Below are positions 3,207-52,558 of a DNA stretch of 64,000 nt, in pieces; positions within the stretch are counted from its first letter, which is position 1; every line of letters begins with the position of its first letter. Origin of the DNA: Thermoplasmata archaeon (GTDB taxonomy: Archaea > Thermoplasmatota > Thermoplasmata > RBG-16-68-12 > JAGMCJ01); the NCBI GenBank assembly GCA_023136265.1, contig JAGLRN010000017.1, positions 7,509 to 71,508 on the forward strand, in the 5' to 3' direction. The notes under the pieces are model-generated. The model saw only the letters and a list, made by a program, of their open reading frames with translations. It ran no database searches and was not told the origin of the DNA. The position numbers and the translations under genes were made by a program.

Positions 3207-3501
3207 GAAACAGAGGTTCTTCTCATGGACCATCCTCCCACAACCGCTGAGCCCATCCAAGAAGTCTCCTTGGGCCATTCTTGTACCAGAAAGCCTTCTG
3301 AGATGTGTCATGCCTCCTTGAATCCCATGAAGCTTGCTGTGCTCTCCACTCTCGATCCGTCTCACTATGAACCTTGTCTCATCATCATTGAGCTTGTGGG
3401 ACATCCCGGCAGGGGATGTCTCCGTTGTTAATGATCTCGGGATGGCACAGCTCGAGTTCTAGACAGAAAAGCTTATCTGCACTGGTCAGGGTCAAGATTT
3501 C

Positions 3502-5390: not shown

Positions 5391-6623
5391 TCATATGAGG
5401 GTCGTCTGGAACTTCAGTCGGAAGTTCTTGACATTCGAGAGGAGTTCATCCCTTTCCAGCACCCGTCTCGTCTCGAGCGCAGGGACGCTCGACTGGATCT
5501 CCTTCGTTCGACCTCCCCTTCCGAAGGATTTCACACGGGCACTCACGAGCCCGAGCATGTCGAGTTCGGATATGAGGTCCGTTATGCGTCTCTGCGTCAG
5601 GATGCTCATGCCCGTCCTCCGGCAGAGCTGCTTGTACATGCTGTACACATCGCCGGTCGTCATCCTCGTGGCCCCCATCTCCTCGTTCATGATTATGCCG
5701 AGAAGGATCAGCTTCGATTGCGTGGGAAGCGACTTGACGGCCTCGATGACGCAGTCGAGCTCGAGCTGGTTCTTCGCCCGAAGCACGTGCCTGTCCGTGA
5801 TCTTGTTCTCATTGTTCCTCTCGGCGATCTCGGCCGCGACCCTGAGAAGATCAAGGGCTCTCCGCGCGTCCCCGTGCTCCTGTGCCGCGAGGGCCGCGCA
5901 CAGCGATGTGACGCTTTCGTCGATGACGTCGTCGTCAAAGGCCAGATCTGCTCTCTGACCGAGTATGTCTTTCAGCTCCTCGGCGTTGTACGGAGGGAAG
6001 ACCATCTTCTCGTCGCTCAGTCTGCTTCTGACCCTGGGATCGAGGAACTCCGTGAACTTGAGATCGTTGGATATGCCCAGGATGCTGACCTTCGCCTTCT
6101 TCAGGTCCTCGTTTATCCTCGTCAGATGATAGAGTACGTCGTCCCCGCTCTTGTAGATGAGCTTGTCGATCTCATCGAGTACGACAACCACCACGCGCCT
6201 CTCCTCATCGAGCTTCTCCCTCAGCATGTTGTAGACCCTCTCCGTTGGCCAACCTGTGAAGGGGATCCTCTCGTCGAAGTCCTCGATGAACCTGTTTCCC
6301 AAGTTCTGGAGAACACTGTACTGCGTGTCGGTCACCTCGCAGTTCATGTAGAGGTAGTCGACCCGCGACCACTTCTTCGCCTTCTCCACCTCCTTCTGCA
6401 GGTACTTCACCGTCGCAGTCTTCCCTGTTCCAGTTTTCCCGAATATCAGGACGTTGGAAGGTCTCTCGCCCCTCAAGGCCATCGCAAGGATGGAAGCCAG
6501 CTGCTTGATTTGCCTCTCCCTATGGGGCAGGTTCTCTGGGATATAAGAAGGTCTAAGGATGTCCCTGTCCTTCTTGAAGATAGCCTTCATTGCCAGGTAC
6601 GGCTCGAATATGCTGTCTTCCAT
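5391..6623 (-). CDS. cdc6: Orc1/Cdc6 replication initiator (AAA+ with C-terminal winged helix)
   Basis: Walker A GKTGTGKTAT, Walker B VVLDEID, and typical archaeal Orc1 length and organisation. Confidence 0.9.
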   Translation of the reverse strand: MEDSIFEPYLAMKAIFKKDRDILRPSYIPENLPHRERQIKQLASILAMALRGERPSNVLIFGKTGTGKTATVKYLQKEVEKAKKWSRVDYLYMNCEVTDTQYSVLQNLGNRFIEDFDERIPFTGWPTERVYNMLREKLDEERRVVVVVLDEIDKLIYKSGDDVLYHLTRINEDLKKAKVSILGISNDLKFTEFLDPRVRSRLSDEKMVFPPYNAEELKDILGQRADLAFDDDVIDESVTSLCAALAAQEHGDARRALDLLRVAAEIAERNNENKITDRHVLRAKNQLELDCVIEAVKSLPTQSKLILLGIIMNEEMGATRMTTGDVYSMYKQLCRRTGMSILTQRRITDLISELDMLGLVSARVKSFGRGGRTKEIQSSVPALETRRVLERDELLSNVKNFRLKFQTTLI

Positions 6624-15604: not shown

Positions 15605-16069
15605 TCAGTCTAGGGCGCCCTCCAGCCTGAGGAGGAACCTCTTCAACCTCACTCCACCGCCGAAGTGGCCGATCGAACCGTCGCTCCTGATCACCCTGTG
15701 GCAGGGGATGACGATGGGCGTGCGGTTGTTCCCGACAGCATTCCCGACGGCTCTGTATGCCCTCGGTCTGCCCACCGCCTCAGCCACCTGCTTGTAGCTT
15801 CTCATCTCACCCGAAGGGATGCCCGCCACGGCCTCGAGCACATCTCTCTGGAACTCGGTGTAGCCGGAAAGATCCAGCTTCAGCCTGCCGAAATCGACGG
15901 AATCGCCGTTGAAGTAGTCCTTGAGAAGCCCCTTGGTCTCCTCCAGCAGCTCCGAGCTGGCTCCCTCGGCTAGAGGATCTCCGTCAAGCAGTATCTCGTA
16001 GAGGCCGTCATCGCTCTCGAAGATCTGGAGGCAACCGTTGGAAGTGAAGAACAGCTTCGTCTTCATCAT
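15605..16069 (-). CDS. ogt: O6-methylguanine-DNA methyltransferase (Ogt/MGMT)
   Basis: YRAVGNAVGNNRTPIVIPCHRVI with a canonical PCHRV Cys. The track ORF is extended to 16189; MMKTKLFF (ATG 16069/16066) is the likely start. Confidence 0.8.
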   Translation of the reverse strand: MMKTKLFFTSNGCLQIFESDDGLYEILLDGDPLAEGASSELLEETKGLLKDYFNGDSVDFGRLKLDLSGYTEFQRDVLEAVAGIPSGEMRSYKQVAEAVGRPRAYRAVGNAVGNNRTPIVIPCHRVIRSDGSIGHFGGGVRLKRFLLRLEGALD

Positions 16070-25518: not shown

Positions 25519-27105
25519 GTGGAGACCCCTTTCTCCGAGCTCGTTCAGGTGTGCAAGGCTCTCGAGTCCACGACCAAGAGGTTGGAGAAGAGGAGAGTCT
25601 TGGGGGAGTTTCTTCAGGGAGTCAACCCCGATGAGATCTCCCCAGCGGTACTGCTCGTCATAGGCAGGATCTTCCCGGAGGCGGAGTCAAAAGCCCTTCA
25701 CGTCGGATGGAGAACCGTCAAGAAGGCCCTCGGTCCGGGGAAGCAGGCCACACTTTTCGAGAAGCCTCTCAGCATTCTGGACGTCCGGAGGTCATTCGAT
25801 GAAATCGCCAAGGTCTCTGGTGGGGGCTCCATTAGCCGAAAGACGAACCTGATGAAGGCCCTGCTCGGTCGGGCGAGTGACGACGAGCGGGAGACGATCC
25901 TGAAGAATCTGTTCCGAGAGATGAGGCACGGTGTGAGTGAGGGCATCATGCTCGAGGCGATCGCCGACGCATCCGGCGCGGACGTCAACCTCGTCAGGCG
26001 GGCCCATATGTTGAGCGGGGACGTTGGCGGCGTAGCTCAGGTCGCGCTCACCTCAGGTCCTTCGGGACTCGAGAGGTTCGGACTGAGCCTCCTGAAACCC
26101 GTCAAGCCCATGCTCGGTGAGTTGGCGGAGAGCCTCGAGGACGTCTTCGAGGAGCATTCGACGGGAACCGCGCTAGAGTTCAAGTACGACGGCGCAAGAA
26201 TCCAGATACACCGCAAGGGGGACGAGGTCGGAATATTCACCCGCCGATTAATAGACGTGACGGCATCGCTCCCTGAGATACGGGAGACCGCCCTGAGCTT
26301 TCCCGCGAAGGAGTTCCTCTCGGACGGCGAGGTCGTCGCCGTGGATGGCGAAGGGAAGCCGCTGCCATTCCAGGACCTGATGAGGAGGTTCAGGCGGGTC
26401 CACGATGTGGATGAAGTGAGGAAGCAGATGCCACTCAAGCTCTACCTCTTCGACGTTCTGTATGTCGATGGGGAGATGTTGATTGACGAGCCATATGAAT
26501 CGAGGTGGCTTAGGCTGTCCGAACTCGCGCCAGACTATCTCGCGGAACGCATCGTATCATCTGAGTTAGGGGAAGCGACTGAATTCCTGGAAAGGGCGCT
26601 GGAGGCGGGGCACGAGGGCTTGATGGCAAAGGCTCTGGACAGCCCCTATCGCCCGGGTCACAGGGGAAAGAGGTGGTTCAAGGTCAAGCCCGCGGAAAGG
26701 CTAGACCTCGTCATCGTAGCGGCCGAGTGGGGCTACGGGCGAAGGGAAGGCTGGCTGAGCAACTACCATCTTGCTGTGAGGAACGAGGAGAGGGGCGGGT
26801 TCGAGATGATCGGGAAGACGTTCAAGGGGCTGACGGACGAGGAGTTCCAGTGGATGACGGACCGCCTCCTTTCGCTGAAGACGTCGGAAGACGGATACAC
26901 GGTTCTTGTCCGCCCGGAGGCCGTTGTCGAGGTCGCTTACAACGAGATCCAGAAGAGCACTCACTATGACTCGGGCTTTGCCCTCCGCTTCGCCAGGATA
27001 AAGCGCATCAGGGAGGACAAATCGCCCGAGGACGTTGATACGTTCTCCACGTTGAAAAGCCTCTATGAGAAGCAGTTCGAGCGGAAAGGCAGGTTGTCAG
27101 ACTGA
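25519..27105 (+). CDS. lig: ATP-dependent DNA ligase
   Basis: EFKYDGARIQIH (KxDG adenylation motif), OB domain, conserved C-terminal FPR..R motif. Confidence 0.9.
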   Translation: METPFSELVQVCKALESTTKRLEKRRVLGEFLQGVNPDEISPAVLLVIGRIFPEAESKALHVGWRTVKKALGPGKQATLFEKPLSILDVRRSFDEIAKVSGGGSISRKTNLMKALLGRASDDERETILKNLFREMRHGVSEGIMLEAIADASGADVNLVRRAHMLSGDVGGVAQVALTSGPSGLERFGLSLLKPVKPMLGELAESLEDVFEEHSTGTALEFKYDGARIQIHRKGDEVGIFTRRLIDVTASLPEIRETALSFPAKEFLSDGEVVAVDGEGKPLPFQDLMRRFRRVHDVDEVRKQMPLKLYLFDVLYVDGEMLIDEPYESRWLRLSELAPDYLAERIVSSELGEATEFLERALEAGHEGLMAKALDSPYRPGHRGKRWFKVKPAERLDLVIVAAEWGYGRREGWLSNYHLAVRNEERGGFEMIGKTFKGLTDEEFQWMTDRLLSLKTSEDGYTVLVRPEAVVEVAYNEIQKSTHYDSGFALRFARIKRIREDKSPEDVDTFSTLKSLYEKQFERKGRLSD

Positions 27106-33677: not shown

Positions 33678-35561
33678 CTACTCAACCGGTGGTTCTTCCT
33701 TCTTCCTGCGCTTGATGAGCACGAGCACAACCACGAGGGCCGCAACCACCATGAGCGCTATCGCCGCATACAAGACGTAGTCGAATCCCTTGTCATCTCC
33801 TTCATCATCCACGGGCGGATGGCTGTGCGGATCGTCGGGATCGGTCCCGTTCTGATACTCGACGAGGTTGGAGAACCCATCCCCATCTAGATCTTCATCG
33901 GCATCGGAGGGATCCAAGGGATCAAGAGAATTCGAGTGCTCCCAACCATCCGGCATCGTGTCCTCATCGGTGTCGTTGGACAGCGGATTCGTCCCAAGTC
34001 CATCCTCCGTCTCATCGGACAACCCATCACCGTCATCATCCAGGTCGCTGAAGTCTGGCTCACCGTCTCCGTCAGTGTCCAGGATGTCTCCCTCAAAGAT
34101 CTCCGTATGTGAGAGGTTCATGTCGACGCTCCTGTTGTGGTATGCGAAGAACAGAGTGGGGTGAGTAACCGTCACCATCGTGGTATTATGCACTCTCACA
34201 CCGTCTTCGTAGGTCTCGTGGGCAACCGTGACGTCTCGCACGTATCCCTGGACGTTGGTGACGTTGGAGAAAACGGATACACCGTTGTCTGTGATTTCAA
34301 CCGTGACATTATCGACTGGGTCCGACGTCTGGTGCTCGATGGTGTGGACGGTCAAGTAGTTCTTAACGAGGAGATGACAGGCTGGACAACCAGATCCTGC
34401 GGAGACCTTCCCGCCAAAAGTGGAGTTGACCACGACCAGAGCAGAACCTGACTCGAGGAAGAAATCCCTCAACGCCCCACTTATCGTCGAGTTGTAGAAA
34501 GTCGCGTCACCTTCGTAGGCGTACACGCCATCATCCACACCCGATATGTTTGCACCTTCGATGGTGCCAAACGAAGATCCGAGTCTCAGGCCAACAATGC
34601 TGCCTTCCGAGACATCGCCTAGGGACTGAACATTGGTGAAATCCAGGTGGAAGCCCACCTGCTCGTTTCCCCGGGCTACATTCATCCTGCTGATTAAGAG
34701 GCCGCTGCCCCAGGAATAGAAGCCAGCTACGTTATTGATGGCGGTGTTCGCAATCAGGACGGGTTGCGAAACAAAGGACCGCAGTCCATAAGTGTTGCCC
34801 TCCATCGTGTTGTTGCAGATAAGCGAAGTTGAGGATTCTAGTCGTATCCCGTGAGTGTTACTCATGAAAGTGCTGTTCTGGATTGTAACGTTCGTGTTTC
34901 GGACGTATGCACCGTTTTCCGTGTACGCGACCCTCACGTAGTTGAATACTGACGACTCACTGCCTGTGTCGAAGTACACGCCGTCCCAGTCCCCCTTCTG
35001 GGGCTCTGAGGAGTTCGAGGTGAAAATTATCATTTGGTTCCATGACCCCTGAGCGACCAAGGTTCCTGCAACAGAGAGCCTGGTTCCATTGTCAAACGCG
35101 ATAGTCGCTCCCGGATCGATGGTGAGTGTCGCATTAGCACCGACGACCAAATCCCCCTTGACAACCCTCGTGGAAGAGTCCCAGTGGTCGTCCACGACCT
35201 CGAAGGACACATTGTGGTAGAATACGTCAGGAAGCTGTGTATAGCTCGCGTTGACCCACCATGTCCCCGTCTGGTTAGCGGTGTAATTGCTTCTTGCGAG
35301 TCCGCCGTCGTCAGGATCGGATGCCACAGTGTGGACGAGCGAACCGGTAGGGTCGTACCACTGGAAATCCACATCGTTAAGCTCAGATGGCGGCGAGCCC
35401 GTGAAGTTCAGTAGCGCACCCGCCACGACCTTGGATTCGTTCACATAATCCGAGACCACTGTCACGATGTCGCTCACAGTAACAGCTGCTCTCACGTTGA
35501 CGCCGGCGAACGTGCTCGTGACAAGGATTGCCATGATGGTGATGGCAAGGCGGCTTTTCAT
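33678..35561 (-). CDS. Cell-surface right-handed beta-helix glycoprotein with TSP3-like Ca-binding D-rich repeats and a C-terminal TM anchor
   Basis: Signal peptide MKSRLAITIMAILVTSTFAG. More than 25 N-x-S/T sequons. PbH1-like repeats (NNTMEGNTYGLR, ANTAINNVAGF). DTDGDGEPDFSDLDDDGDGLSD repeats. C-terminal LYAAIALMVVAALVVVLVLIKRRKKEE. Confidence 0.75.
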   Translation of the reverse strand: MKSRLAITIMAILVTSTFAGVNVRAAVTVSDIVTVVSDYVNESKVVAGALLNFTGSPPSELNDVDFQWYDPTGSLVHTVASDPDDGGLARSNYTANQTGTWWVNASYTQLPDVFYHNVSFEVVDDHWDSSTRVVKGDLVVGANATLTIDPGATIAFDNGTRLSVAGTLVAQGSWNQMIIFTSNSSEPQKGDWDGVYFDTGSESSVFNYVRVAYTENGAYVRNTNVTIQNSTFMSNTHGIRLESSTSLICNNTMEGNTYGLRSFVSQPVLIANTAINNVAGFYSWGSGLLISRMNVARGNEQVGFHLDFTNVQSLGDVSEGSIVGLRLGSSFGTIEGANISGVDDGVYAYEGDATFYNSTISGALRDFFLESGSALVVVNSTFGGKVSAGSGCPACHLLVKNYLTVHTIEHQTSDPVDNVTVEITDNGVSVFSNVTNVQGYVRDVTVAHETYEDGVRVHNTTMVTVTHPTLFFAYHNRSVDMNLSHTEIFEGDILDTDGDGEPDFSDLDDDGDGLSDETEDGLGTNPLSNDTDEDTMPDGWEHSNSLDPLDPSDADEDLDGDGFSNLVEYQNGTDPDDPHSHPPVDDEGDDKGFDYVLYAAIALMVVAALVVVLVLIKRRKKEEPPVE

Positions 35562-35630: not shown

Positions 35631-37624
35631 CTACTTGCGGCCAGGGACGAGTCCCCAGTAACCTATGCTGTGCCCATACTCGTTGTTCAGGTGGTCAGCT
35701 ATCTCCGTCGCAGTCGCGTACTCGCCATTATCGTACAGGTCCATCAGGTGGTCCAGCGCTTCCGAGGCCGTCATCTCAGTTCCGTCGGGGAAGGTAACAA
35801 CATCATCGGAACCTACAGTCCCGCTGCCGACGTTGTATTCCCAAGCTGTGATCTGAAGCAGGGCCAACTCCCCCTGGTTGGCGCCTCTGCCTCCCCCTCC
35901 TCCCCCCGTGGGACAGATATCTCCTTCCCCGACCGTAATCGTGGTCGTAACGGTGGCCGAGCCACCATCATCATCGGTTACAGTGAGAGTGACTACATAC
36001 GTTCCAGGTGAGCTGTAAGTATGAGTCTGAGTGTCCTGGACATTGAGCGGCGGAGTAGTTCCGCCGAAGTAGGGCTCGTACGGACTCGAATCGGGATCGT
36101 TAGGCGGCACTCTGGAGGGGTCATAGTAGTAGGTCGTGGTCGTGACGTTGCTACCGTCTCCCCAATTCCATGTGAATGTCAGGTCATCGCTGCCTGGGTC
36201 TGTTGCCGATCCAACGAAGGTCAAAGGCGCACCTACGAGTGCCCCGATGTTGATATCAACGATCCAAGGCTCCACGTGAATGAAGTGCTCGCTGTCCCTC
36301 TCGATGGACTGCTGCACGTTGAAGGTGTGTTTTATCTTGCACTGTCCACCCTCCGCGAAGTCCAGGATTATCCAGACGGGATTGGCTCCCCACAGCTGTC
36401 CGTTGATGGGCTGATCGCCCATTATCGCGTCGTTGAGGTCCTCGTACGGATCGTATGTGACCACCGCGGTATAGTTGACGGAGTCACCCGCATCCAGGCG
36501 AATCGTGATACCCTGGTCCCCAGAGCTTGGATTGAGCATCGGGTCCCCAGGCCACCTCTCTACCTCGATGTTGGCGGCTATGTCATCGTACTGGCCGGTC
36601 TCCCTATCGTAGTTCTCGTAGAGAGTGAGCTCCACATTGTGCCATTTCTCTCCAGTGACTCTCAAGAAAACCGTGACCTCGACGTACGCTCCCTCTATCG
36701 TTGCAGTCGGATCCACATTCAGTACGTCCACATAGCCGAAAGCCGTCCCCGTCAGGCCATCATCATCCGTCACGGTGAGTTTCACTTCGGTGTAGTAGTC
36801 ATCGTACCAGATGAACGTCACGATCGGGCCCGTCGCGTCGACATCGTTGTCGTAGATGCCATCGCCATCACTGTCGACAAACACGTCAAGGTCCCATTCG
36901 TAGCTGACTATCGTGCCGTCAGGGTCGGAAGAACCGGAACCGTCAAGTGTGACCAGATCGCCCTCGTGGATTGTTTCCGGGGTTATGACGATATCAGGCA
37001 CCGGCGGCTCCTCATCCTCGGGTATCATTGCCGAGGAAATGAATGTCAGGTCATGACCGTTCGGGGTCTTGTAACCCGTAACGGGGTCGAACGCGTCGAA
37101 GTGGATCTCGAAGTACTCATCTGGATCTGGGCCCAGCGTCACTGTCGTGTCGAGTCTCACGGTAGTCTTGCCAGGAAGTACCTCAGGCTCGTAGAAGTAT
37201 ATGTCCCAGATTGCTTCGTCTCCTGAGTATACATGATGCTTCCCTCCCCAGGCCTCATCAAACGGATTGAACTCCGTGTTCCCGAAGTCAGGGAGGTATG
37301 ACGCTTCACCCTCAATGTCTATGCTCACAAAGTCATCCGATGTCGTCCAGTTGTGAATCGCAATGGCGATTCTCAAATCGGTGAGATCATCATTTCCTCT
37401 GTTCTCGACAATCATCTCAAAAGTGCAGACAACATCTGGGCCAAAGTCACAATAGGTAACCCACCCACCAGCTTTCCAACCTCCGCCTTTCGCTCTTTCG
37501 CCAGGATCAGCGTTCAGCCAGATGTGGGCACCACCCCCACCGCCTGCAAGAACTGCCGGGAGTAGGGCAAGCATCATCATAGAAGCGCAGGCTAGAGCTA
37601 CGGTTCTCTTCACGTTCTCTCGCA
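35631..37624 (-). CDS. Large secreted PKD-domain protein, paralog 2 of 3, with a distinct C-terminal domain after a GGGGGG linker
   Basis: Start MRENVKRTVALACASMMMLALLPAVLA (ATG about 37624 after a ggaggaaggtg SD); the track ORF is extended to 37919. PKD segments (YEWDLD..., FTWNWGDGS...TVTDDDGGSATV). GEKWHNVELTLYEN block shared with paralog 1. Confidence 0.75.
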
Positions 37625-37650
37625 TGTCTTTCACCTTCCTCCAAACCCCA

Positions 37651-37740
37651 AGAGGCTGTGTCCGCGCCGAGTTGGAGCGTGCGTGTGGGCGAAAAGACGC
37701 CCCTCCTCGACGCCTCGTTGGACAGCCTCCCCCTTTTTTT
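37651..37740 (-). promoter_or_regulatory. GC-rich nested stem-loop element plus A8/T8 tract in the leader region of PKD paralog 2 (possible structured 5' UTR or small ncRNA)
   Basis: gaggctgtgtcc pairs with ggacagcctc, enclosing gggcg-aaaaga-cgccc and gcgccgag/ctcgacgc. It is followed by cccccttttttttg and lies between a TATA-like tatataaaag (37772) and the minus-strand ATG. Confidence 0.35.
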
Positions 37741-37928
37741 GGAAGCTTATGCACTCCACAAATGAGTCTGGGGAGTATATAAAAGCGGACTGGAAACCAT
37801 CCTGAATGATACCACATACCAGGCCATGTACCACGCGGTTGAAATCTGGATTGAGGCATAAAAGCCCAGCCTCGCTCTTCCGGCAATGCGAAAGTAATAT
37901 ATTCGGCGTAGTCAATCATTAGACAAGT

Positions 37929-40460
37929 GTGGGCATGAAATTTCGAGCACTTCTAGTCCTGACGGTCATCATCATTCTGTCCTGTTTTGCGAAGGACGTC
38001 TCGGCAGCCCTGACTGTGACCAACGTCACAGTGACCATGGATCGCTCCACTTTCTATGCCAACCAGTCAACTGCTACTGCAACAGCTGTCATAGAGTACA
38101 CGGCGGGCGCAGCGAAGGATATCGGTGATGTTAGTTTCACTTGGTTCAGACCAGATTGGAGCATAGCCGCCATCAGGATAGACACGGGAAAGGATGATGC
38201 GAACGCCACAAGCGCCATAACGGTCGACATGGGCGGCACATGGCACGTGAACGCCACTTACGTGAACCAAACAGACCAGTTCGACAACGTATCATTTGAA
38301 GTGGTGAGCGCTGGGGTCGTCGTTGTTTCTGACATGGTTCTAGTGGTGAACGCCCCCTATTTCGAATTGGGTGAAACGGTTGTCGCAACTTCGGCTCTTG
38401 ATTACGCAGGGAATGTCAGTCTCTTCGTGGCAGTCGATTTCACATGGATCGACTCCTCGAGCGCAGTTGTGAGGTCGATGAATGTTGTTCCCAATTCAAC
38501 TGGTGTCGCGATAGACACCTGGGGATCCGACAGCGTGGGCCCTTTCCTCATGTATGCGAACTACACGGGAGACGCACCGGTTTCCAGGTCGGTCAGCTTC
38601 GAGGTTTTCCCCACGAGGGTGAGGACCTGGCATAATCTCAGTGTCGTCGTGGATGAGGTCTGGGACTTGGCTGGAGAGCCGTACGGTGTCTGTGAAAACA
38701 TCACAATCGAGGCGGGATCAACGCTCACAATTGAAGCGGGCGTCACCGTGAGATTCTGCGAAGACACTCACATGACCGTGGACGGCGCGCTGGTCTCCGA
38801 TGGATCTCTGGATTCTTTCGTGAACTTCACCGCATTCGGCTTCTTCCCGCCAAAGGGTTACTGGGGTGGCATCATCGTGAACCCCTCCAGCGGTAGCTCC
38901 AGTAGCATCACCCACTCCCGGGTGAGCTTCGCATCAATCGGCATGCTGATAACCTCTGCAAGCCCAACCATCGAGAGAAGCTCGTTCGAGAATATAAGCA
39001 TCGCGGCCATCCAGTTCGATAATGCCACTGCGAATGCTGAGTTCAACTCGTTCGACGATGTCGGCAGAGGGATCTCCGCATCGGCTTCGGACATCGGGAT
39101 GAGGTTCAACACCTTCTCCAACGTCATGATGGGATTGGCCCTGATCGATTCCAACGCCACGCTACACGGAGACACCATCTTCAATTCGACGTCATTCGGA
39201 ATCCACGCATTCAACAGCTCCATTTCCGCTTCCCAGATCAACATCTCGCTCTCCGGCGGTAGCGCGATCAGACTGCAGTCCCAATCGCTTGCGATCATCG
39301 AATCATCTGTCATTGAGAACAGCTGGTACGGTGTCGATGCCTTCTCATCGACCTTCCACGTGAACGAGAGCAGCCTACTCACGAACGACAACGCTGTCAG
39401 GGCGAACGACGGGCAGGGAGACCTGGTTAACACGAGCATCCTCAACTCCGTGGACTTCGACTTCACGTTGGAAGGTGGAAGCTCAGTGATCGCACTCAAC
39501 TGCACGCTCAATGACAGCAAGGTCCAGGTGCTTCCAGCTTCGCGGCTCACCGTGAAGTACTTCTTGGATGTGCAGGTTGCAGACGAGGGTACCGGTGATC
39601 CAATCGGGAACGCCTTTGTGGAGATTCTGGATGATGGCTCCAGTATCTTCTCTTCGAGGACACCTTCGAGCGGCAGGGTGAGATGGATTCCCGTCACTGA
39701 CAGGATATTTGACGGAGCCGACACGCCAACAAAGCACAATATAACGATCAAGATCAGAAAGGATGGATATGACATCGTGGAGCCCGAGAGGACTGTCGAT
39801 ATGTACACATCCCGTCTGGAGGTCTTCCTCGCTACGGAGGCCATTCAAGACATATGGGAGGAGGTTCTCGATCCATTTCTCCTAATGATCCTCTTGATTG
39901 TCATCGCAATTGTGGTCGCCGCCGCCATCATGGTTCGAAGGAGGACAAGGGAGGAAGAGGAGATTGTCCCTGAGAAGAAGGTCCGCAAACCTACTGACTA
40001 CACCCTTAAGAAGGGCACGAGCTATCTTGTCGCTGGGGAGAAACCCGATCTCGCTTTCGGGATATTCTCGAATGCCATCAAAGGCGGAGCTAGCGGACTG
40101 TGCATCACAAGGACGTATCCCGACGAGGTCTCCGAAGAATACGACGTGGGAGATGCCCCGATTCTATGGCTCTCACGAGACTCCAGGCGGGCCAACATTA
40201 GTCCCACGAATTTGGGCGCGATAATCCTTGAGGCGCAGAGGTTCCTCAAGAAGGAGGAGGGCAAGGAGACGATTGTGATGCTCGATGGCATCGAGTACCT
40301 CATCGTCCAGAACGATTTCTCCAAGGTCATCAAGTTCGTTCAGACCTTGAAGGATACGATTTCCGTGGCCGGGTCCAAGCTCCTCATCCCGTTCAACTTG
40401 GCCGCATTGGAGGAATCGAGGCGGGCGTTGCTGACCCGCGACTTGGAGCTATTGGAGTGA
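37929..40460 (+). CDS. Cell-surface beta-helix glycoprotein with a TM segment and a C-terminal cytoplasmic DUF835-like domain
   Basis: Signal peptide MGMKFRALLVLTVIIILSCFAKDVSA. N-terminal domain paralogous to the 33678-35561 protein (TWHVNATY...NVSFEVV). Many PbH1-like repeats. TM LLMILLIVIAIVVAAAIMV. Tail with GLCITRTYP...WLSRD...LDGIEYLIVQNDF...LIPFNLAAL...LLTRDLELLE, matching my recollection of DUF835. Confidence 0.75.
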   Translation: MGMKFRALLVLTVIIILSCFAKDVSAALTVTNVTVTMDRSTFYANQSTATATAVIEYTAGAAKDIGDVSFTWFRPDWSIAAIRIDTGKDDANATSAITVDMGGTWHVNATYVNQTDQFDNVSFEVVSAGVVVVSDMVLVVNAPYFELGETVVATSALDYAGNVSLFVAVDFTWIDSSSAVVRSMNVVPNSTGVAIDTWGSDSVGPFLMYANYTGDAPVSRSVSFEVFPTRVRTWHNLSVVVDEVWDLAGEPYGVCENITIEAGSTLTIEAGVTVRFCEDTHMTVDGALVSDGSLDSFVNFTAFGFFPPKGYWGGIIVNPSSGSSSSITHSRVSFASIGMLITSASPTIERSSFENISIAAIQFDNATANAEFNSFDDVGRGISASASDIGMRFNTFSNVMMGLALIDSNATLHGDTIFNSTSFGIHAFNSSISASQINISLSGGSAIRLQSQSLAIIESSVIENSWYGVDAFSSTFHVNESSLLTNDNAVRANDGQGDLVNTSILNSVDFDFTLEGGSSVIALNCTLNDSKVQVLPASRLTVKYFLDVQVADEGTGDPIGNAFVEILDDGSSIFSSRTPSSGRVRWIPVTDRIFDGADTPTKHNITIKIRKDGYDIVEPERTVDMYTSRLEVFLATEAIQDIWEEVLDPFLLMILLIVIAIVVAAAIMVRRRTREEEEIVPEKKVRKPTDYTLKKGTSYLVAGEKPDLAFGIFSNAIKGGASGLCITRTYPDEVSEEYDVGDAPILWLSRDSRRANISPTNLGAIILEAQRFLKKEEGKETIVMLDGIEYLIVQNDFSKVIKFVQTLKDTISVAGSKLLIPFNLAALEESRRALLTRDLELLE

Positions 40461-42502: not shown

Positions 42503-44803
42503 CTAGGGTGCATAGAGGTCCACGGTGACGCTGATGAGCGTCTCACCACCGTCATCGTCAGCGACCGTGATGACCAAGCTGTACGATCCCTCGGCCCAGT
42601 AGGAGTGACTGGCGCTTATCCGTACGTCGAATGGGTAGTTGCCATATGGGCTGTTTGGCGGGTCTGGTGCCAGGCCGTCATTGAAGTACGTCTCAACGTC
42701 GCTTGATCCATCGCCCCAGTCAATGGAGACGATTATGTCGTCACTTCCAGGATCGTGAATGTCAGTAGACAGAGAGACCTCGCCAATCGCGATGTTGTTC
42801 CCGTTGTTGATATCGTCAGCCACCGTCTTCACGTCCTCGAACTCGCTCTCGTTCGTCGAGGTCATGAGGATGTCTTCCGCCCACACAAGGATGTCCCCAA
42901 GGGTCGTTTCGTTCTGTCCGGGAGGCCTTGCCTGCGTCGTGAAGTTCAGCTTCCCGGACGCTACGTTCAACCACAGGGCCATCAACTGACCCTGGGCCCT
43001 GGAGTGCACCTCCTCTCCGGACGCCCATTCGAGCACAGTGCAGACATCATCCTCCGTGCTGACGTACGCGAAGAGGTCGGAGTTCGAGCTTATGAAGAGT
43101 ATCAGGTCATCGGTGATGCCCGTGTGGTTGCCGTAGGGTTCTGTGACGGTGCACTGATGGTTCCAGAAACCCTGCGTCCTGGGCTCGAGTACCGTGACAG
43201 AATAGACGAAGTTCCCTACAGTCGGATCCACGTTCTGCACCAGCAGAGGCACGTCCACGGTTTCCGAGTCCCCGTCATCGTCCACGACCGTGACCTGGAT
43301 TCCGAGGTTGAAGTCATCCCCATAGACATGGGAATCTGCGAAGTCGCCCGTTGCATCAGGTTCCTGGTTCTCTTCGGCGACGAGCGGTGCGCTGGTCTGA
43401 CCGTCGTTCCAGTCAATAAGGGCCGTGTGCGTGTCAAGCCATCCAGGGTCGTAGAAGGTCACGTGGACAGTGAACGATTGCCCCTCATCGATGGTCGACG
43501 GCTGGACGGTGATGGTGTCTATTGTCGGTGCGACATTGAAGCACCGGTAGTGCGTGGTTGTCATATCGCTCATCTCGTCATCGGAGACCTCCACGGTGAC
43601 ATCCGTCTCGTAAGGGCCGTCCCCGCAGGTCAGCTGAACAATTGGAAGAGAGGACCAGCTCGTGTCCCAAGCACCGTCGTGATCAAGGTCCCAGCGGTAC
43701 TTGAGCAGGTCGCCGTTCGGGTCGGAGCTACCGCCCGCATCGAGTAGGATGTCCGCCCCTTCATCCACCTCATACGGACCTCCGGCGTTGGCGACAGGCG
43801 GCTTGTTCACTCTGTACACCTCGATCAGCGGTTTCGCTGAATGGGAGTCATTCGACCCATCGTGGTCCACGTCCGCATATGCCCGCGGCAGGAAGTACCT
43901 TCCAGCCAACAACTTGGGAGTAACGAGCGTGTAGCTCAGCAACACCGTGTGGTATGGCGTGGGAGTCAAGTCATCATGGAAGCTAACGTCCGCCGCGGAC
44001 ACATTGACCTTCCATCTGATCGTCTGCGATCCGTCTGGATTGCCCACAACGGCATCAGGTGCCGGAACGATGGACCCCGGAACGTAGGAGTAGCCCATTG
44101 GAATAGTGTCCTCGATCACCGAGTTCACCGCGTGTGGGGGATTCGTGACACCCGGCCCGTAGATGGCCAGATTGGTGACAGTGAGCGTGATGGTGATGTT
44201 GTGGTTTATGGCATCCTCGACGTTCTTCCACAGAGGGGTCTTGCCCACAACGAGCGTAGGATGCAGGTCGAGGTAGTCCCATATCTCGTCGTTCGTGGGG
44301 TTTGGACCCTGAGCGATCTCCTGAAGTGCATAGGGCATTATCTCTCCCCCGAGGAAGATCGTAGCGCCATATTGGGTCCACTGCCTGTGTTCTGTGCACC
44401 ACCACACGATCGACCCTGGAGGCGCACCATCGCCGTACTCGTAGTCTAGGTAAGAATACGGGTCTACGACGGCACTCGTCAGAGCTCCATCCTGAGTCGT
44501 CTGAGGATTCCAAGATTCCAGGGGATGAGGACTCAAGAGCATCATCATCTCGTTTATGTTGACCTTGATGCTTCCGGAATTGGTCACCCTGAACACCGAC
44601 GGATAGCCGTACTGATTGACCTCCGACGTGATTTGGGCCCATCCTTTGGCGTAAGCTTCCCAGATCTTGATCATGTCAGGCATAGGCTGAGGTCCCAATG
44701 GGTCCTCCAGTCTCGCACTCGGTTCGGTTGCGGGTTCCGACACTGCGATCGCGGACGAAAGTAGCAGTATCGCGAACACCGACATCGTGGCGATTTTCTT
44801 CAC
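42503..44803 (-). CDS. Large secreted PKD-domain protein, paralog 3 of 3
   Basis: Signal peptide MKKIATMSVFAILLLSSAIAVSEP. PKD segments (KYRWDLDHDGAWD..., IDWGDGSSDVETYFNDG...ITVADDDGGETL). C-terminal block homologous to paralog 1. Confidence 0.8.
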   Translation of the reverse strand: MKKIATMSVFAILLLSSAIAVSEPATEPSARLEDPLGPQPMPDMIKIWEAYAKGWAQITSEVNQYGYPSVFRVTNSGSIKVNINEMMMLLSPHPLESWNPQTTQDGALTSAVVDPYSYLDYEYGDGAPPGSIVWWCTEHRQWTQYGATIFLGGEIMPYALQEIAQGPNPTNDEIWDYLDLHPTLVVGKTPLWKNVEDAINHNITITLTVTNLAIYGPGVTNPPHAVNSVIEDTIPMGYSYVPGSIVPAPDAVVGNPDGSQTIRWKVNVSAADVSFHDDLTPTPYHTVLLSYTLVTPKLLAGRYFLPRAYADVDHDGSNDSHSAKPLIEVYRVNKPPVANAGGPYEVDEGADILLDAGGSSDPNGDLLKYRWDLDHDGAWDTSWSSLPIVQLTCGDGPYETDVTVEVSDDEMSDMTTTHYRCFNVAPTIDTITVQPSTIDEGQSFTVHVTFYDPGWLDTHTALIDWNDGQTSAPLVAEENQEPDATGDFADSHVYGDDFNLGIQVTVVDDDGDSETVDVPLLVQNVDPTVGNFVYSVTVLEPRTQGFWNHQCTVTEPYGNHTGITDDLILFISSNSDLFAYVSTEDDVCTVLEWASGEEVHSRAQGQLMALWLNVASGKLNFTTQARPPGQNETTLGDILVWAEDILMTSTNESEFEDVKTVADDINNGNNIAIGEVSLSTDIHDPGSDDIIVSIDWGDGSSDVETYFNDGLAPDPPNSPYGNYPFDVRISASHSYWAEGSYSLVITVADDDGGETLISVTVDLYAP

Positions 44804-48040: not shown

Positions 48041-48535
48041 TTAGTGAAGAAGGCCGGCCGCGCCGAGCTCCTCGGTGATCTTCTCCACCGCTCTTTCCAC
48101 GTCCTCCGGCTTTCTCGCCCCGGTACAGACGAGCTTGCCAGACCCGAAAAGAAGAACTACCACCTTCGGGTCGTCGATCCTGTACACGAGTCCTGGGAAC
48201 TGTTCGGGCTCATATTCCACCTTCTCCAGTCCGAGGCTGATCGCGATTGCGTTGAGGTTGATCTTCGTCTCAAGATCAGAAGAGGCCACGATGTTCTGGA
48301 CCTCAACGTCCGGATCCGTGTTCACCTTGATTCCAGCGTCCTCGATCTGCTTTGCGACTTTCCTTATGGCCTTGTGAACATCGTCCAGGCTCTTCGCTCC
48401 AGTGCACACAACCTTACCGCTACGGAACAGCAGGGTAGCGGTCTTGGGCTCCTTCAACCTATAGATTAGACCCGGGAACTGCTCGGGCTCGTACTCGGAA
48501 CCGGTGAGCGCCAGAGCAATCGCCTGCAGGTCCAA
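48041..48535 (-). CDS. tbp: TATA-box binding protein. The annotated TTG start truncates the conserved N-terminal strand, so the true start is probably a few codons upstream.
   Basis: Two repeats of [11 protein letters not shown]...P....LLF.SGK.VCTGA. The open frame upstream encodes ...[18 protein letters not shown], the canonical TBP N-terminus, but contains no ATG, GTG or TTG. Confidence 0.85.
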
Positions 48536-48685: not shown

Positions 48686-49591
48686 CTAGACGCCGTACGA
48701 GTTCTCCATACCTTTGACCACGGCCAGCAGTGCGGAATTGAGGGGAGTCGGAACGCCTCTGTCGTTCCCCTGGCGGACGATCTCGCCCGTGATGGAATCG
48801 ATCTCCGTTTTTCTCCTCCTCACGACGTCCTGCAGCATGCTCGACATGTTCTGAGCAGTCATCCTCGCGACCCTCTTCGTCCTCTCCACCAAGTCATCCT
48901 TAGGGAGCGGGATCTCACACGTCGTCGCCACCTCAATCGCCTCAAGGCAGACATCTTCCAGCATCCCAGTGACTTCAGGGTTTCCCAGAAGATAACCGTT
49001 CCTTGCTCCGAGGATGGCGGTTAGCGGATTGATGCCAGCGTTCACTATCGCCTTCGCCCATACCTCCCCGCTAAGGTTCTCCGTGACGTCCGTCCTCATC
49101 CCGCAGGCGGTCAGCTCTCCTGCGAGGGAATCGAGGGACTCCCGTGAGACGCCCTTGTAGATGCCCGCAACGGTGTCTCCCATTCCCGCGTGAACGACGT
49201 CTCCTGGCCCCCTCAGCGTGGCCCCGTGACTCGTCGTCCCGCCGATAACGTTGTTCGCGTATCCCCCGATTGTCTCGAGATTGCCGAGGCCGTTCTGCAT
49301 CGTCACGACCGTGCTCAATCCTGGCAGTTTGGCCAACGACTTCATCGCGCTCCTCGTGTCGTAGAACTTCACTGTCAGGAAGACGTAGTCATAGCCCGAG
49401 AGGTCCTCTACCCTCTCCACGGCACTCGGTCTGGCCAGCATCTCAGTGTGACCAGAAATCCTGAGCCCTTCCGCTTGGATGCTGGACATGTGCTCCCTCC
49501 TTCCAACGAGGGTGACCTCATTCCGCTTTGAAAGGAGTGCTCCTATCAGGCTACCGAGTGCTCCCGCCCCGAAGATGAGGACTCTCATCAC
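48686..49591 (-). CDS. panE: 2-dehydropantoate 2-reductase (ketopantoate reductase)
   Basis: GTG start. Rossmann motif VLIFGAGALGSLIGALL. ApbA/PanE family length. Confidence 0.8.
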   Translation of the reverse strand: MMRVLIFGAGALGSLIGALLSKRNEVTLVGRREHMSSIQAEGLRISGHTEMLARPSAVERVEDLSGYDYVFLTVKFYDTRSAMKSLAKLPGLSTVVTMQNGLGNLETIGGYANNVIGGTTSHGATLRGPGDVVHAGMGDTVAGIYKGVSRESLDSLAGELTACGMRTDVTENLSGEVWAKAIVNAGINPLTAILGARNGYLLGNPEVTGMLEDVCLEAIEVATTCEIPLPKDDLVERTKRVARMTAQNMSSMLQDVVRRRKTEIDSITGEIVRQGNDRGVPTPLNSALLAVVKGMENSYGV

Positions 49592-49619: not shown

Positions 49620-50528
49620 TTATCCTCCCTTTCCCGCTGTCGCGGCCAGGTGCGCCTGCCTCAGTGGCTCTGGGATTCTGGTCTTGCACAGGCTCTTCAC
49701 GATTCGCACGGACGACTCAAAGGAGACAAGATGGCCCGGTGATATATAGATCGGTCTCTTGGAGGTCGAACTCCTCAGCGCGTATCCGATAGTCTCGTCA
49801 TTGTGCAGCACCCGCTCGGAATCGCCCACTCTGGAGGGGGTCCTGGTCTTTCCCACGAGGAGGCTCTTGGCCACGCCTATCGTCGGCTTCCCCAGCTTCA
49901 CGCCGACATGGCAGCCAATCCCCGCCCTTCGTGGATGCGAGTACCCATGTCCGTCAATCAGAAGGACGTCCACATCGTTCCTCACCCTCTCGTATGCGGT
50001 TCTGATCGCCGGGTACTCTCTGTAGGTCAGATAGCTGGGGATGTAGGGGAAGTCGATTTCCTTGACCACCACGTCCTTCTCGATGACGTCCAGGTTCTTG
50101 ACGTCGACCACTGCGAATGCACACACGGCACGGTCATCCTCGTACGCGAGGTCGAACCCGCAGACGTTCTTGACATCCTCGAAGTCGTCTTCGAGCACCA
50201 CAACATCCGCAACCTCTCTCTGCTCTTCGCGAAGGAGCTTGAGCGGGCATTCGGCCCGGAGATCGCGGAAGAGCACGTGGTCCAGGTCGCGGATCCTCCC
50301 ATCAATAACAGCGATACCCTCGTTCCTGAGGGACTCGATCTGCCACGGTCTCGCCTTCCCTTGGGCGTTGACAACGCGGTGGGATCGTTGGCGGCTCCTC
50401 GCCAGGAAGTCGGAGACCGCCCTCGAGGCCCTCACGTCCCCAAGGGCTTTCGCCACCTCACCGAACGTTGTCACGCGGCCTTCAGGAATCTGGGAGAGGA
50501 CTTTCTCCAGTTCGTGACTGAACATCAT
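49620..50528 (-). CDS. nfi: Fusion of an alkyltransferase-like (ATL; MGMT fold with Cys replaced by Ser) N-terminal domain and endonuclease V
   Basis: N-terminus IPEGRVTTFGEVAKALGDVRASRAVSDFLARSRQRSHRVVNAQGK follows the Ogt C-domain pattern but has SHRV instead of PCHRV. The C-terminus DVLLIDGHGYSHPRRAGIGCHVGVKLGKPTIGVAKS is EndoV. The start is taken at MMFSHE; the track ORF is extended to 50627. Confidence 0.7.
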   Translation of the reverse strand: MMFSHELEKVLSQIPEGRVTTFGEVAKALGDVRASRAVSDFLARSRQRSHRVVNAQGKARPWQIESLRNEGIAVIDGRIRDLDHVLFRDLRAECPLKLLREEQREVADVVVLEDDFEDVKNVCGFDLAYEDDRAVCAFAVVDVKNLDVIEKDVVVKEIDFPYIPSYLTYREYPAIRTAYERVRNDVDVLLIDGHGYSHPRRAGIGCHVGVKLGKPTIGVAKSLLVGKTRTPSRVGDSERVLHNDETIGYALRSSTSKRPIYISPGHLVSFESSVRIVKSLCKTRIPEPLRQAHLAATAGKGG

Positions 50529-50619
50529 GGAACCGCTGCCCCTGTTGTTTGATATTGGCGGGGCGGTTAAGAAGCTTATCAATAAAATGAAATAGCGACA
50601 CCTCCTTCCCGCGAATTGG

Positions 50620-51915
50620 ATGTCCATACTGCTGAGGGGCGGCTATGTTCTCACACAGAATGATGAGCGGGAGATACTCGCGGGCGATGTCCTCATCGAT
50701 GACGACAGGATAGCCGAGGTCGGGAAGGTCACCGCCGAGGCGGACCGCGAGATCGACTGCAGCGGCTCCGTGGTCATGCCCGGGCTGATAAACAACCACA
50801 ACCACGTGGCGAACACGATCATGAGGGGCTACGCGGACGACGTCCATCTCGAGCAGATGTTGGAGAAGGCCTTCACGGTGGACGACAAGATCACCACCAG
50901 GGACGTGCAGGTCGCCAGTCTGGCGGGTTGCGTAGAGATGATAAGGACAGGCACGACCTCCTTCCTAGACATGTTCTACTGGGAGAACGAGGTCGCCCGG
51001 GCGGTCAGGCAGACCGGGATGAGAGGCTTCCTCGGATGGGTGGTCCTCGACAGGGAGATCTCGACGCAGAAGGGGGACCCGCTCAAGAACTGCGCGGGCT
51101 TCATGCGCGACCTAAAGGGCGAGGAGCTGGTCAGCCCCCTCGTGGCGGTTCACGGCGTGTACACGTGCTCTGAGGAGACGTTCCTCGGTGCCAGGGACCT
51201 AGCCGAGCGGGAGGACGTCCCCGTCCACTTCCATCTCTCTGAGACGAGGAAGGAGGTCTACGGCCACGTCGAGAAGTATGGTCTGCGCCCGCCGGAGTGG
51301 CTGGAGAAGATAGGATTCCTCTGCGAAAGGGGCATCGCCGCGCACTGCGTCTGGCTCACGACAAACGAGATCAGGACGCTCGCCAAGAGAGGGGTCAGCG
51401 CGGTCCACTGTCCCGTGTCCAACATGAAGCTCGCATCGGGCGGGTTCGCCCCGCTCCCCGAGATGTTCGAGAACGGAATGACCGTCTGCCTCGGGACGGA
51501 CAGCCCCCTGTCGAACAACAGCCTCGACATGTTCGAGGAGATGAAGTTCTGCTCGCTCATGCACAAGGCGTCCCGCTGGGATGCCACGGTCGTGCCCGCT
51601 CAGAAGGCCCTTGACATGGCCACCATCGAGGGCGCCCGTGCCCTGGGAATGGAAGAATCGCTCGGGTCGATCGAAATCGGGAAGAAGGCCGACATCATAG
51701 TCGTGGACATGAAGAAGGCCAAGTCAACTCCGCTGTTCAAGTCGAGAATCCCGTCACATCTGGTCTACTCCTGCAACGGGGGCGATGTGTCCCATACAAT
51801 CGTCAACGGGAGGATCGTCATGGAGGGCTCGCGACCTACGAACGTTGACGAGGACGAGGTTGTCAGGAGTCTTCAGGAGCACGCGGACGAGATCTTCGGT
51901 GAGGGCAATGACTAG
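50620..51915 (+). CDS. Amidohydrolase, MTA/SAH/5'-deoxyadenosine deaminase (MtaD/DadD) family
   Basis: MPGLINNHNHVA metal-binding HxH, chlorohydrolase family length. Confidence 0.8.
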   Translation: MSILLRGGYVLTQNDEREILAGDVLIDDDRIAEVGKVTAEADREIDCSGSVVMPGLINNHNHVANTIMRGYADDVHLEQMLEKAFTVDDKITTRDVQVASLAGCVEMIRTGTTSFLDMFYWENEVARAVRQTGMRGFLGWVVLDREISTQKGDPLKNCAGFMRDLKGEELVSPLVAVHGVYTCSEETFLGARDLAEREDVPVHFHLSETRKEVYGHVEKYGLRPPEWLEKIGFLCERGIAAHCVWLTTNEIRTLAKRGVSAVHCPVSNMKLASGGFAPLPEMFENGMTVCLGTDSPLSNNSLDMFEEMKFCSLMHKASRWDATVVPAQKALDMATIEGARALGMEESLGSIEIGKKADIIVVDMKKAKSTPLFKSRIPSHLVYSCNGGDVSHTIVNGRIVMEGSRPTNVDEDEVVRSLQEHADEIFGEGND

Positions 51916-52558
51916 AATCTGCGGGGTGGACGAGGCGGGTCGAGGGCCGGTGATCGGACCGCTCGTCGTCGCTGGCGTCCTCGTGGAGAACGACGAGAGC
52001 CTTCGCGAGATGCGGGTGAGGGACTCCAAGAAGTTGTCCGCGAAAAGGCGGGAGGAGCTCGCCGGAAAGATTCTGGAGATAGCGGAGTGCGAGATCCAGG
52101 TCGTCCCCGCCGAGGACATCGATGAGATGCGGAAGCTGATGACGATCAATGAGCTTGAGGCGAGGGTGTTCGCCTCCGTGGTCAGGAAGCTGAGGCCCGA
52201 AATCGCGTACTTGGACTCCGCGGACGCGAACTGCGAGACGTTCGAACGCCTTGTGAGGAATGAGTTGGATTTCGATCTCAAGATCGTCAGCGAGCACAAG
52301 GCGGATGAGGTCTATCCGGTTGTGAGCGCGGCGTCCGTGATTGCGAAGGAGAGGAGGGAGGAGGAGGTGCGGAGAATCCGGGAGGAGCTGGGCGAGGAGA
52401 TCGGGAGCGGCTATCCTGCGGACCCCATCACGGTCGAGTTCATGAAAAAGTGGATAAGCGAGAAAGGGGGTTTGCCGCCATATACCCGGAGGAGCTGGGA
52501 GACCGCACGAAGAATGCTCGCCGAATCGAAGGTGAAGAAACTCGATGAATTCCAGTGA
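51908..52558 (+). CDS. rnhB: Ribonuclease HII
   Basis: MTRICGVDEAGRGPVIGPLVVAG has the RNase HII DEAGRGP motif. The ATG overlaps the preceding stop. Confidence 0.85.
   Translation: MTRICGVDEAGRGPVIGPLVVAGVLVENDESLREMRVRDSKKLSAKRREELAGKILEIAECEIQVVPAEDIDEMRKLMTINELEARVFASVVRKLRPEIAYLDSADANCETFERLVRNELDFDLKIVSEHKADEVYPVVSAASVIAKERREEEVRRIREELGEEIGSGYPADPITVEFMKKWISEKGGLPPYTRRSWETARRMLAESKVKKLDEFQ

Follow-up and report, generated by a model that had tools for sequence, protein, structure and literature searches.

Known fusions of endonuclease V and alkyltransferase-like proteins

Fusions of an O6-alkylguanine-DNA alkyltransferase (AGT) domain, or of an alkyltransferase-like (ATL) domain, to endonuclease V (EndoV) are quoted as evidence from nature that modules for direct reversal or for lesion sensing can be wired to excision repair. 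The characterised prototype is AGTendoV of Ferroplasma acidarmanus (Kanugula et al. 2005, as cited in PMC10779285 and PMC3489907), an organism that also encodes a second, conventional AGT (PMC10779285). As these citing papers present it, an AGT C-terminal-type domain lies directly N-terminal to EndoV, and its reactive Cys repairs O6-alkylG. According to the review PMC10779285, Tubbs et al. 2009 reported an archaeal fusion of an ATL to EndoV, whose EndoV domain has been speculated to act in an XPG-like role. The concept of an ATL joined to EndoV is therefore not new, at least in the form in which that review cites it.

ATLs such as Atl1 of S. pombe (3gva/3gx4), vpAtl (2kif) and E. coli eAtl/YbaZ consist of a lone AGT-C-type domain, with neither an AGT N-domain nor a nucleophilic Cys. 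Typically they bind O6-alkylguanine in DNA with high (nM) affinity and pass it on to NER. They stand alone and carry the sequence P-W-H-R-V (or A in place of W), Tyr25, Pro50 and an Arg69 loop that closes on the lesion. In Atl1, W56 and P50 contact the alkyl group, Arg69 contacts the flipped base, R39 and Y25 drive base flipping, and a capping loop takes the place of the Asn hinge (PMC10779285). Canonical EndoV, as represented by the enzymes of T. maritima (2w35/6ozg) and E. coli (4xpu), has no N-terminal AGT-like domain. Beyond the review PMC10779285, the literature searched yielded no characterised or biochemically studied Cys-less fusion, nor any account of pocket-loop deletion as a systematic feature of most Cys-less fusions.

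The gene considered here lies in a window of 64,000 nucleotides, the whole stretch of DNA that was analysed, from a Thermoplasmata archaeon. Its product is a pocket-deleted variant of the known AGT/ATL-EndoV fusion family, for which an ATL function is probably the wrong assignment. The features discussed below are collected in Table 1.

Table 1. Positions of the fusion gene, its domains and key residues, and of other genes in the window
Feature	Position	Strand	Basis or remark
Fusion CDS, 302 aa + stop	49620-50528	-	ORF list
AGT/ATL-fold N-domain, Cys-less, shortened loops	50274..50528	-	residues 1-85
Helix-turn-helix, residues 22-43, recognition helix R33-A-S-R36-A-V	50400..50465	-	models and Atl1 alignment
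Phe22 replacing conserved Tyr (hAGT Y114 / Atl1 Y25)	50463-50465	-	alignment
Arg36, Arg-finger equivalent (Atl1 R39)	50421-50423	-	alignment
Ser49, codon tcc, at nucleophilic Cys position (hAGT C145 / Atl1 W56)	50382..50384	-	sequence, alignments
Endonuclease V domain, residues 86-302	49623..50273	-	PF04493, 2w35 alignment, Foldseek
D126 (= Tm D43)	50151-50153	-	phmmer alignment to 2w35
Wedge P161-Y-I-P164 (= Tm PYIP 79-82)	50037-50048	-	phmmer alignment to 2w35
E171 (= Tm E89)	50016-50018	-	phmmer alignment to 2w35
D192 (= Tm D110)	49953-49955	-	phmmer alignment to 2w35
K221 (= Tm K139)	49866-49868	-	phmmer alignment to 2w35
H293 (= Tm H214)	49650-49652	-	phmmer alignment to 2w35
AT-rich divergent intergenic region, 91 nt	50529..50619	.	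sequence; spacing and gene order same in L001
Amidohydrolase gene	50620-51915	+	divergent from fusion gene
Canonical Ogt (O6-alkylguanine-DNA alkyltransferase), IPCHRVI, full-length pocket loops	15605..16069	-	Pfam, TIGR00589, alignment A3
PolD small subunit	252-1763
Orc1/Cdc6	5391-6623
DNA ligase	25519-27105
TBP	48041-48535
RNase HII	51785-52558
FtsZ, proteasome alpha, SBDS and exosome-subunit genes	positions as in L001		by synteny only

Domain composition of the fusion protein

The N-terminal domain matches the Pfam family PF01035 (DNA_binding_1) at residues 3-59, with 40.7 bits (cutoff 27) and an E-value of 2.2e-10, the match covering only positions 2-62 of the 81 in the profile. The C-terminal domain matches PF04493 at residues 105-293 with 213.6 bits (cutoff 23.4; E 2.7e-63). 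Both matches are well beyond chance, and NCBIfam agrees with Pfam. An AF2 model of residues 1-100 (pLDDT 90), compared with the PDB by Foldseek, retrieved only AGT-family structures. ATLs came first (2kif, TM 0.70; 3gva, TM 0.72), followed by Ada-C, hAGT and SsOGT, and a profile of the N-domains ranked the sequences of the PDB in the same way (2kif, 1.5e-14; 3gva, 5e-14; Ada-C, 7e-11). Like an ATL, the domain has the fold of the AGT C-terminal domain without the AGT N-terminal domain. A first-pass annotation, made from the letters of the sequence, had read this N-terminus as MGMT-like and fused to EndoV, and both parts of that claim are borne out by the profile and structure matches.

Within the N-domain, the AF2 models place the helices of the helix-turn-helix (HTH) at residues 22-29 and 32-43. 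The Arg finger of the ATLs is present as Arg36, which is R or K throughout the subclade to which the protein belongs, and, again as in the ATLs, a C-terminal extension follows the EG-[VI] motif. The Tyr that assists base flipping is replaced: the position equivalent to hAGT Y114 holds Phe in the fusion protein and in its relatives P0001 and P0002, whereas P0003-P0012 have Tyr.

The C-terminal domain of 217 residues is 33-35% identical to canonical EndoV, with an rmsd of about 1.7 A. phmmer aligns it to T. maritima 2w35 with an E-value of 2.7e-35. The full-length AF2 model was built on a 75-sequence alignment and reaches a pLDDT of 94.9 and a pTM of 0.90. It matches the T. maritima and E. coli enzymes in Foldseek at E-values of about 1e-23 to 3e-24 and a TMt of about 0.9 (for 6ozg/2w35 E about 3e-24, rmsd 1.7-1.8 A), the matches listed for it being of EndoV and PIWI-like type, with none of AGT type among them. 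No catalytic or metal-binding residue is missing, the PYIP wedge is in place, and D126, P161, E171, D192 and K221 are invariant in the 75 homologues. Two NCBIfam equivalogs score below their own cutoffs (NF008629, 196 bits against 230; NF041102, 182 against 300), as is expected of a divergent, fused EndoV. The EndoV half thus looks fully functional, and its residues predict an active enzyme. In the full-length model there is no low-confidence or disordered linker between the domains, which, together with the pTM, suggests that their arrangement is fixed.

As in Ferroplasma, a separate conventional AGT coexists with the fusion. The Ogt encoded elsewhere in the window covers the whole PF01035 profile (1-81 of 81, E 2.8e-32), scores 106.7 bits with TIGR00589 and shows a weak match to the N-domain family PF02870. 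Its IPCHRVI sequence agrees with the first-pass description of it as a bona fide Ogt with PCHRV.

Loss of the nucleophile and of pocket loops

AGTs are recognised by a nucleophilic Cys within P-C-H-R-V, which is missing from the fusion N-domain. Ser49 aligns with the Cys of the PCHRV motif in M. tuberculosis OGT, Ada-C, the Ogt of the window and the Cys-bearing fusions. It is followed by His50-Arg51-Val52, and the Pro that precedes the Cys position is absent, so that the Cys-to-Ser replacement with loss of the Pro, as first annotated, is confirmed. In the corresponding sequence of ATLs, P-[WA]-H-R-V, the Cys is likewise replaced, but there by Trp or Ala and after a Pro; close relatives of the fusion protein have S, T, W or a gap at this position.

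The possibility that alkyl transfer persists by means of another nucleophile, either Ser49 itself or a Cys elsewhere, can practically be dismissed. The retained HRVV motif is all that speaks for it. Neither the sequence nor its alignment with other fusions and with ATLs reveals a substituting Cys in residues 1-93; the nearest one, C94, belongs to the junction and is not conserved, P0002, an orthologue of 89% identity, having Ser there. Furthermore, the hAGT variant with Ser in place of the Cys is inactive and has been used to trap substrate complexes (PMC10779285), the Asn hinge and the pocket loops are deleted in the fusion, and the Cys position varies among close relatives. As the N-domain contains no Cys, transfer of an alkyl group to it would be impossible.

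The loss extends beyond the nucleophile. In an alignment (A3) of the fusion protein with Atl1, vpAtl, Ada-C, the Ogt of the window and the Cys-bearing fusions, four residues are missing directly before the Cys/Trp position (Atl1 T52-P55), and the active-site loop is shorter by eight (Atl1 K68-E75, Arg69 included). Consequently, 12 residues separate the Arg finger from the Cys/Trp position, against 16 in the characterised ATLs and AGTs aligned, and the stretch after the His counts 16 residues against their 22-24. Of the residues that act on the lesion in Atl1, W56 is replaced by Ser49, P50 by Gln47 and Y25 by Phe22, and R39 alone is kept, as Arg36. The region of the capping loop is shortened and basic. 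Neither the Asn hinge (N-P-x-P-I...) and pocket-forming active-site loop of an AGT nor the lesion-binding pocket of an ATL (W56, P50, the capping loop and the R69 loop) is intact in the sequence of the protein. The fusion therefore differs from AGTendoV, as the latter is described where it is cited, in having Ser49, Phe22 and a pocket without these 4 + 8 loop residues. The two deletions and the replacement of the conserved Tyr by Phe22 are additions to what had been annotated at first.

In its proposed role, the N-domain had been regarded as a lesion-recognition module that targets EndoV, on the argument that Cys loss is the hallmark of ATLs. Such a sensor would flip and bind O6-alkylguanine without repairing it, steering EndoV or downstream excision repair to the lesion. 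The fold and the missing Cys agree with it, and the best matches in the PDB, by sequence and by structure, are ATLs and not AGTs. Base flipping would be possible with an Arg finger that is R/K across the subclade and with the Tyr or Phe that persists at the Y114 position. The C145S variant of hAGT retains binding to O6-meG DNA and served for a crystal complex (PMC10779285), so that a Ser at this position is compatible with binding. Moreover, the literature already contains an ATL-EndoV fusion with a speculated XPG-like role of its EndoV domain, as summarised in the same review, and some relatives, such as L036, combine PWHRV with full loops. However, every characterised ATL or AGT aligned has full-length loops, whereas in the fusion the loop with the Arg69 equivalent and the segment before the Cys/Trp position are deleted, W56 and P50 are represented by Ser and Gln, and the Tyr by Phe. 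The ATL-like fold and the loss of the Cys thus stand, but the lesion-recognition function attached to them is not supported, as the pocket loops are shortened and contact residues are deleted or substituted. Capture of alkyl lesions by this domain is unlikely.

Distribution and descent of the fusion family

The fusion protein has 1287 homologues in the database at E<1e-5, and among the best 120 nearly every one is the same fusion, encoded in MAGs of Thermoplasmata and Methanomassiliicoccales. When species-representative genomes were scanned, the fusion turned up mainly in Thermoplasmatota, and also in Bathyarchaeota, Aenigmatarchaeota, Iainarchaeum and Nitrososphaerota, as well as in several phyla of Bacteria (Bipolaricaulota, Thermotogae, Fraserbacteria and Planctomycetota).

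When 197 fusion proteins were classified by the Cys and by the lengths of the two loops, a close association emerged, in counts that are not phylogenetically independent. Both loops are of full length in 106 of 107 Cys-bearing fusions, while 85 of the 90 Cys-less ones have at least one short loop (both short in 77, one in 8) and five have full loops. Some of these five are ATL-like, for example L036 with VPWHRVV and L024 with PFHRV, and judging from their motifs and loops they are probable examples of the ATL-EndoV class; they have loops of 16 and 22-24 residues, whereas the fusion described here belongs to the loop-deleted class with 12 and 16. Among the Cys-less fusions the Cys position is hypervariable, being occupied by A, S, W, T, R, G, I, L, M, V or N. 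Most Cys-less clades have also replaced the Arg finger (M/A/P/V/T) and the Tyr (F/C/L). The R/K finger and the Y/F at the Y114 position are retained in the subclade formed by the fusion protein and P0001-P0012.

Like the AGTendoV prototype as cited, which is likewise of Thermoplasmatota, the protein has an AGT-family domain directly N-terminal to EndoV, and like the ATL-EndoV fusion as the review relates it, it joins a Cys-less domain of this family to EndoV in an archaeon. It also shows the junction motif of the family, F-x-D-F...PL..LR.EQ, which it shares with Cys-bearing members at 40-48% identity. In a neighbour-joining tree of the EndoV domain, computed without support values, the Cys-less forms make up one large clade with the fusion protein inside it, and two sporadic losses of the Cys occur within the Cys clade (P0028/P0042 and P0082), each accompanied by a deletion in loop 2. 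Both the common junction motif and the tree point to descent of the Cys-less N-domains from the fusion's own AGT domain, and not from an ATL acquired independently.

The loss of the Cys together with the loops, and the hypervariability of the Cys position, argue for a relaxed pocket and not for a maintained sensor. By the same sequence comparisons, many Cys-less fusions, including the whole clade studied here, are suggested not to be ATLs in the functional sense, and labelling such proteins as "ATL-EndoV" damage sensors is probably wrong. The family could instead be taken as a graded natural series, running from the full AGT through PWHRV full-loop forms and loop-deleted forms with the Arg finger to forms without the finger, from which it may be read which parts of the AGT fold serve DNA binding and which serve lesion capture. 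The loop-deleted fusion does not overturn current understanding.

Selection on the N-terminal domain

Conservation is unevenly distributed along the protein. In the 13-member subclade, mean pairwise identity is 69% for residues 1-53 (first helix, HTH and xHRVV strand), 48% for residues 54-85 (the former pocket half and C-terminal hairpin) and 68% for the EndoV domain. In the comparison with the 89%-identical orthologue of the syntenic locus L001, which rests on few substitutions, dN/dS is 0.12 for the HTH core (residues 12-53) and 0.31 when the whole N-domain is taken, against 0.16 for EndoV. For residues 54-95 the ratio is 1.39, from 2 synonymous and 9 non-synonymous changes; these are too few for a claim of positive selection, and the value is merely consistent with relaxation. 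The pattern Q-I-P-x-G...A-x-A-L-G-D-x-R-A-x-x-A-V is present in Cys-bearing and Cys-less clades alike. Taken together, the regional identities, the dN/dS values and the shared recognition-helix pattern indicate that the DNA-binding half of the domain is maintained and its lesion-pocket half relaxed.

This contrast bears on the proposed sensor, since the Cys position and the pocket half evolve fast and the HTH does not, and since the loss of the Cys has repeatedly been accompanied by that of loops. This relaxation speaks against a module that recognises lesions on behalf of EndoV, as do the deleted or substituted equivalents of the Arg69 loop, W56 and P50. We consider the sensor unlikely, and grant it some residual probability because the Arg finger and the Tyr/Phe persist in the subclade and ATLs are the closest structures.

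It could also be argued that the N-domain is a remnant without any role at the DNA, kept for the folding or stability of EndoV or on its way to being lost. In sister clades the domain has decayed progressively, the Arg finger and the Tyr having disappeared, and its C-terminal hairpin is deleted in P0086, P0092, P0093, P0108 and P0109. The junction, which is rigid and linker-free in the model, would suit a supporting role, and stand-alone EndoV enzymes function without an AGT-like domain. Nevertheless, an N-domain is present in essentially all of the about 200 fusions examined, its HTH half is as conserved as the catalytic domain, with the low dN/dS just given, and the recognition-helix pattern (ALGD-xRA-xxAV) has been kept across Cys-bearing and Cys-less clades. 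A remnant of this kind is accordingly quite improbable.

Proposed role of the N-terminal domain

The reading that we favour, and hold to be probable, is that of an active EndoV joined to an AGT-derived, non-catalytic module that binds the minor groove of DNA or has a structural function, alkyl repair being carried out by the separate Ogt. The N-terminus would be a vestige of the AGT domain of the Thermoplasmatota AGT-EndoV fusions, in a lineage that would have lost the alkyl-accepting Cys along with the two loops lining the O6-alkylguanine pocket. Selection would keep the first helix and the HTH with its small-residue recognition helix and Arg/Lys finger, and from this we infer that the HTH binds DNA and that lesion binding has been lost. 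Given Mg2+, the EndoV domain would nick DNA at the second phosphodiester on the 3' side of deoxyinosine, and perhaps also of other deaminated bases. Being joined to it without a flexible linker, the N-domain may anchor or stabilise EndoV on DNA, through minor-groove contacts that are independent of the lesion or through structural support, and the reversal of O6-alkylguanine would fall to the separately encoded Ogt. A lesion-independent role in DNA binding or structure is proposed because the HTH is maintained, the pocket loops are lost and the junction has no linker.

A more far-reaching version, which we think decidedly unlikely, is that the domain has been repurposed as a reader, the Arg finger and the HTH flipping or probing minor-groove bases beside the active site of EndoV and thereby altering or broadening its substrate range. 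If so, a large Thermoplasmata clade might act on substrates such as alkylated or other non-deaminated purines, or structured DNA or RNA, and would possess in one polypeptide an alternative route of excision for lesions that are passed to NER in organisms with ATLs.

Gene model and neighbourhood

The start of the fusion gene at ATG 50528 agrees with nearly all homologues, whose N-terminus reads M-x-F..., and the syntenic locus L001 reproduces the 91-nt divergent gap that it implies. A longer reading of 335 aa from ATG 50627 was rejected, as it overlaps the divergent amidohydrolase gene and most homologues begin at M-x-F. The similarity of this extension to the homologue P0003 probably reflects conserved promoter DNA. 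The intergenic region is presumed to be a putative bidirectional promoter of the fusion and amidohydrolase genes.

No NER genes adjoin the fusion gene in the window. A gene for an ApbA/PanE reductase lies 28 nt downstream of it, and the order amidohydrolase, fusion, ApbA/PanE reductase is kept in the loci L001 and L002. The window as a whole is a segment of an archaeal chromosome bearing housekeeping genes, which are listed in the last rows of Table 1.

Variants of the AGT-like/EndoV fusion

A minority of the fusions that lack the nucleophilic Cys, at loci L036, L024, L058, L072 and L077 of other genomes, keep full-length pocket loops. In L036 the motif is V-P-W-H-R-V-V and the flipping positions are occupied by Tyr and Lys, which together correspond to the classical signature of the ATLs. 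The strongest candidates for a true ATL–EndoV lesion sensor are these five fusions, and not the query protein.

In many of the fusions that retain the Cys, P-C-H-R-V is replaced by P-C-[YF]-K-[IV]-V (homologues P0058, P0073, P0081 and P0100, among others; loci L006, L008, L011 and L014-L018). These proteins are devoid of the His (and Arg) that normally lies beside the nucleophilic Cys in AGTs, but their pocket loops are of full length, and both the Tyr and the Arg finger are present.

A further motif, D/E-C-P-S-[HY]-R-V, is found in bacterial fusions from Bipolaricaulota, Fraserbacteria and Thermotogae MAGs (L044, L045, L054, L055, L059). Here the canonical Cys position is occupied by Ser, with a conserved Cys two residues before it, and both pocket loops are short, at 14/16 residues (from the Arg finger to the Cys position and after the His, respectively). 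This upstream Cys could be a shifted nucleophile, or its presence could be a coincidence.

The fusion extends beyond Thermoplasmatota (L042-L045, L048, L051, L054-L056, L059, L061, L067, L069, L070, L073, L077, L079, L082), being present in bacterial MAGs of Bipolaricaulota/Acetothermia, Thermotogae, Fraserbacteria and Planctomycetota, and in other archaea, namely Bathyarchaeota, Aenigmatarchaeota, Iainarchaeum and Nitrososphaerota. This distribution points to horizontal transfer, or to a degree of MAG contamination.

Surroundings of the fusion gene

The 28-nt spacing between the stop of the fusion gene and the downstream ketopantoate reductase gene recurs at L001 and L002, two loci carrying the fusion in other genomes, and therefore both genes are possibly co-transcribed, though their functions are unrelated. 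On the 5' side, the reading frame stays open beyond the accepted start for a further 33 codons, as far as an ATG at 50627. Its translation begins MDIQFAGRRCRYFILLISFL, and sequence comparison reveals similarity to the N-terminal extension of the homologue P0003, which begins MDIRLAKRVCRYFILLISYL. This segment extends across the AT-rich intergenic region between the divergent genes and into the beginning of the amidohydrolase gene at 50620; it probably represents conserved promoter DNA and not a coding extension.

Other genes in the window

Coordinates of the features discussed (window positions, except for L036)
Feature	Coordinates	Strand	Remarks
PolD small-subunit-like gene	252-1763	+	PF04042 and metallophosphoesterase
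Orc1/Cdc6 gene	5391-6623	-	
Surface-protein cluster (predicted)	8060-10432	+	
	33678-35561	-	
	35631-37919	-	
	37929-40460	+	
	42503-44803	-	
593-aa ORF	16173-17954	+	adjoins ogt
ApbA/PanE-type ketopantoate reductase gene	48686-49591	-	28 nt past fusion stop
Upstream 33 codons	50529-50627	-	in frame with fusion gene
L036 fusion	3001-3903		Thermoplasmata MAG; Cys-less, full-length loops

The genes for the DNA polymerase D (PolD) small-subunit-like protein and Orc1/Cdc6 lie within ~6 kb of each other, a proximity that frequently marks archaeal replication origins. The very large predicted products of the surface-protein cluster harbor PKD, NosD/beta-helix and DUF835 domains, and L001 is syntenic with the window for the DUF835/beta-helix and PKD genes. 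The 593-aa ORF, which at its start overlaps the divergent ogt ORF when the latter is read at its longest, yields no Pfam match at E<=1e-5 in its N-terminal ~200 aa; it combines this region with an AhpC/TSA-redoxin domain and a DsbD/CcdA-type transmembrane domain, and resembles a thiol-disulfide oxidoreductase system fused into a single protein.
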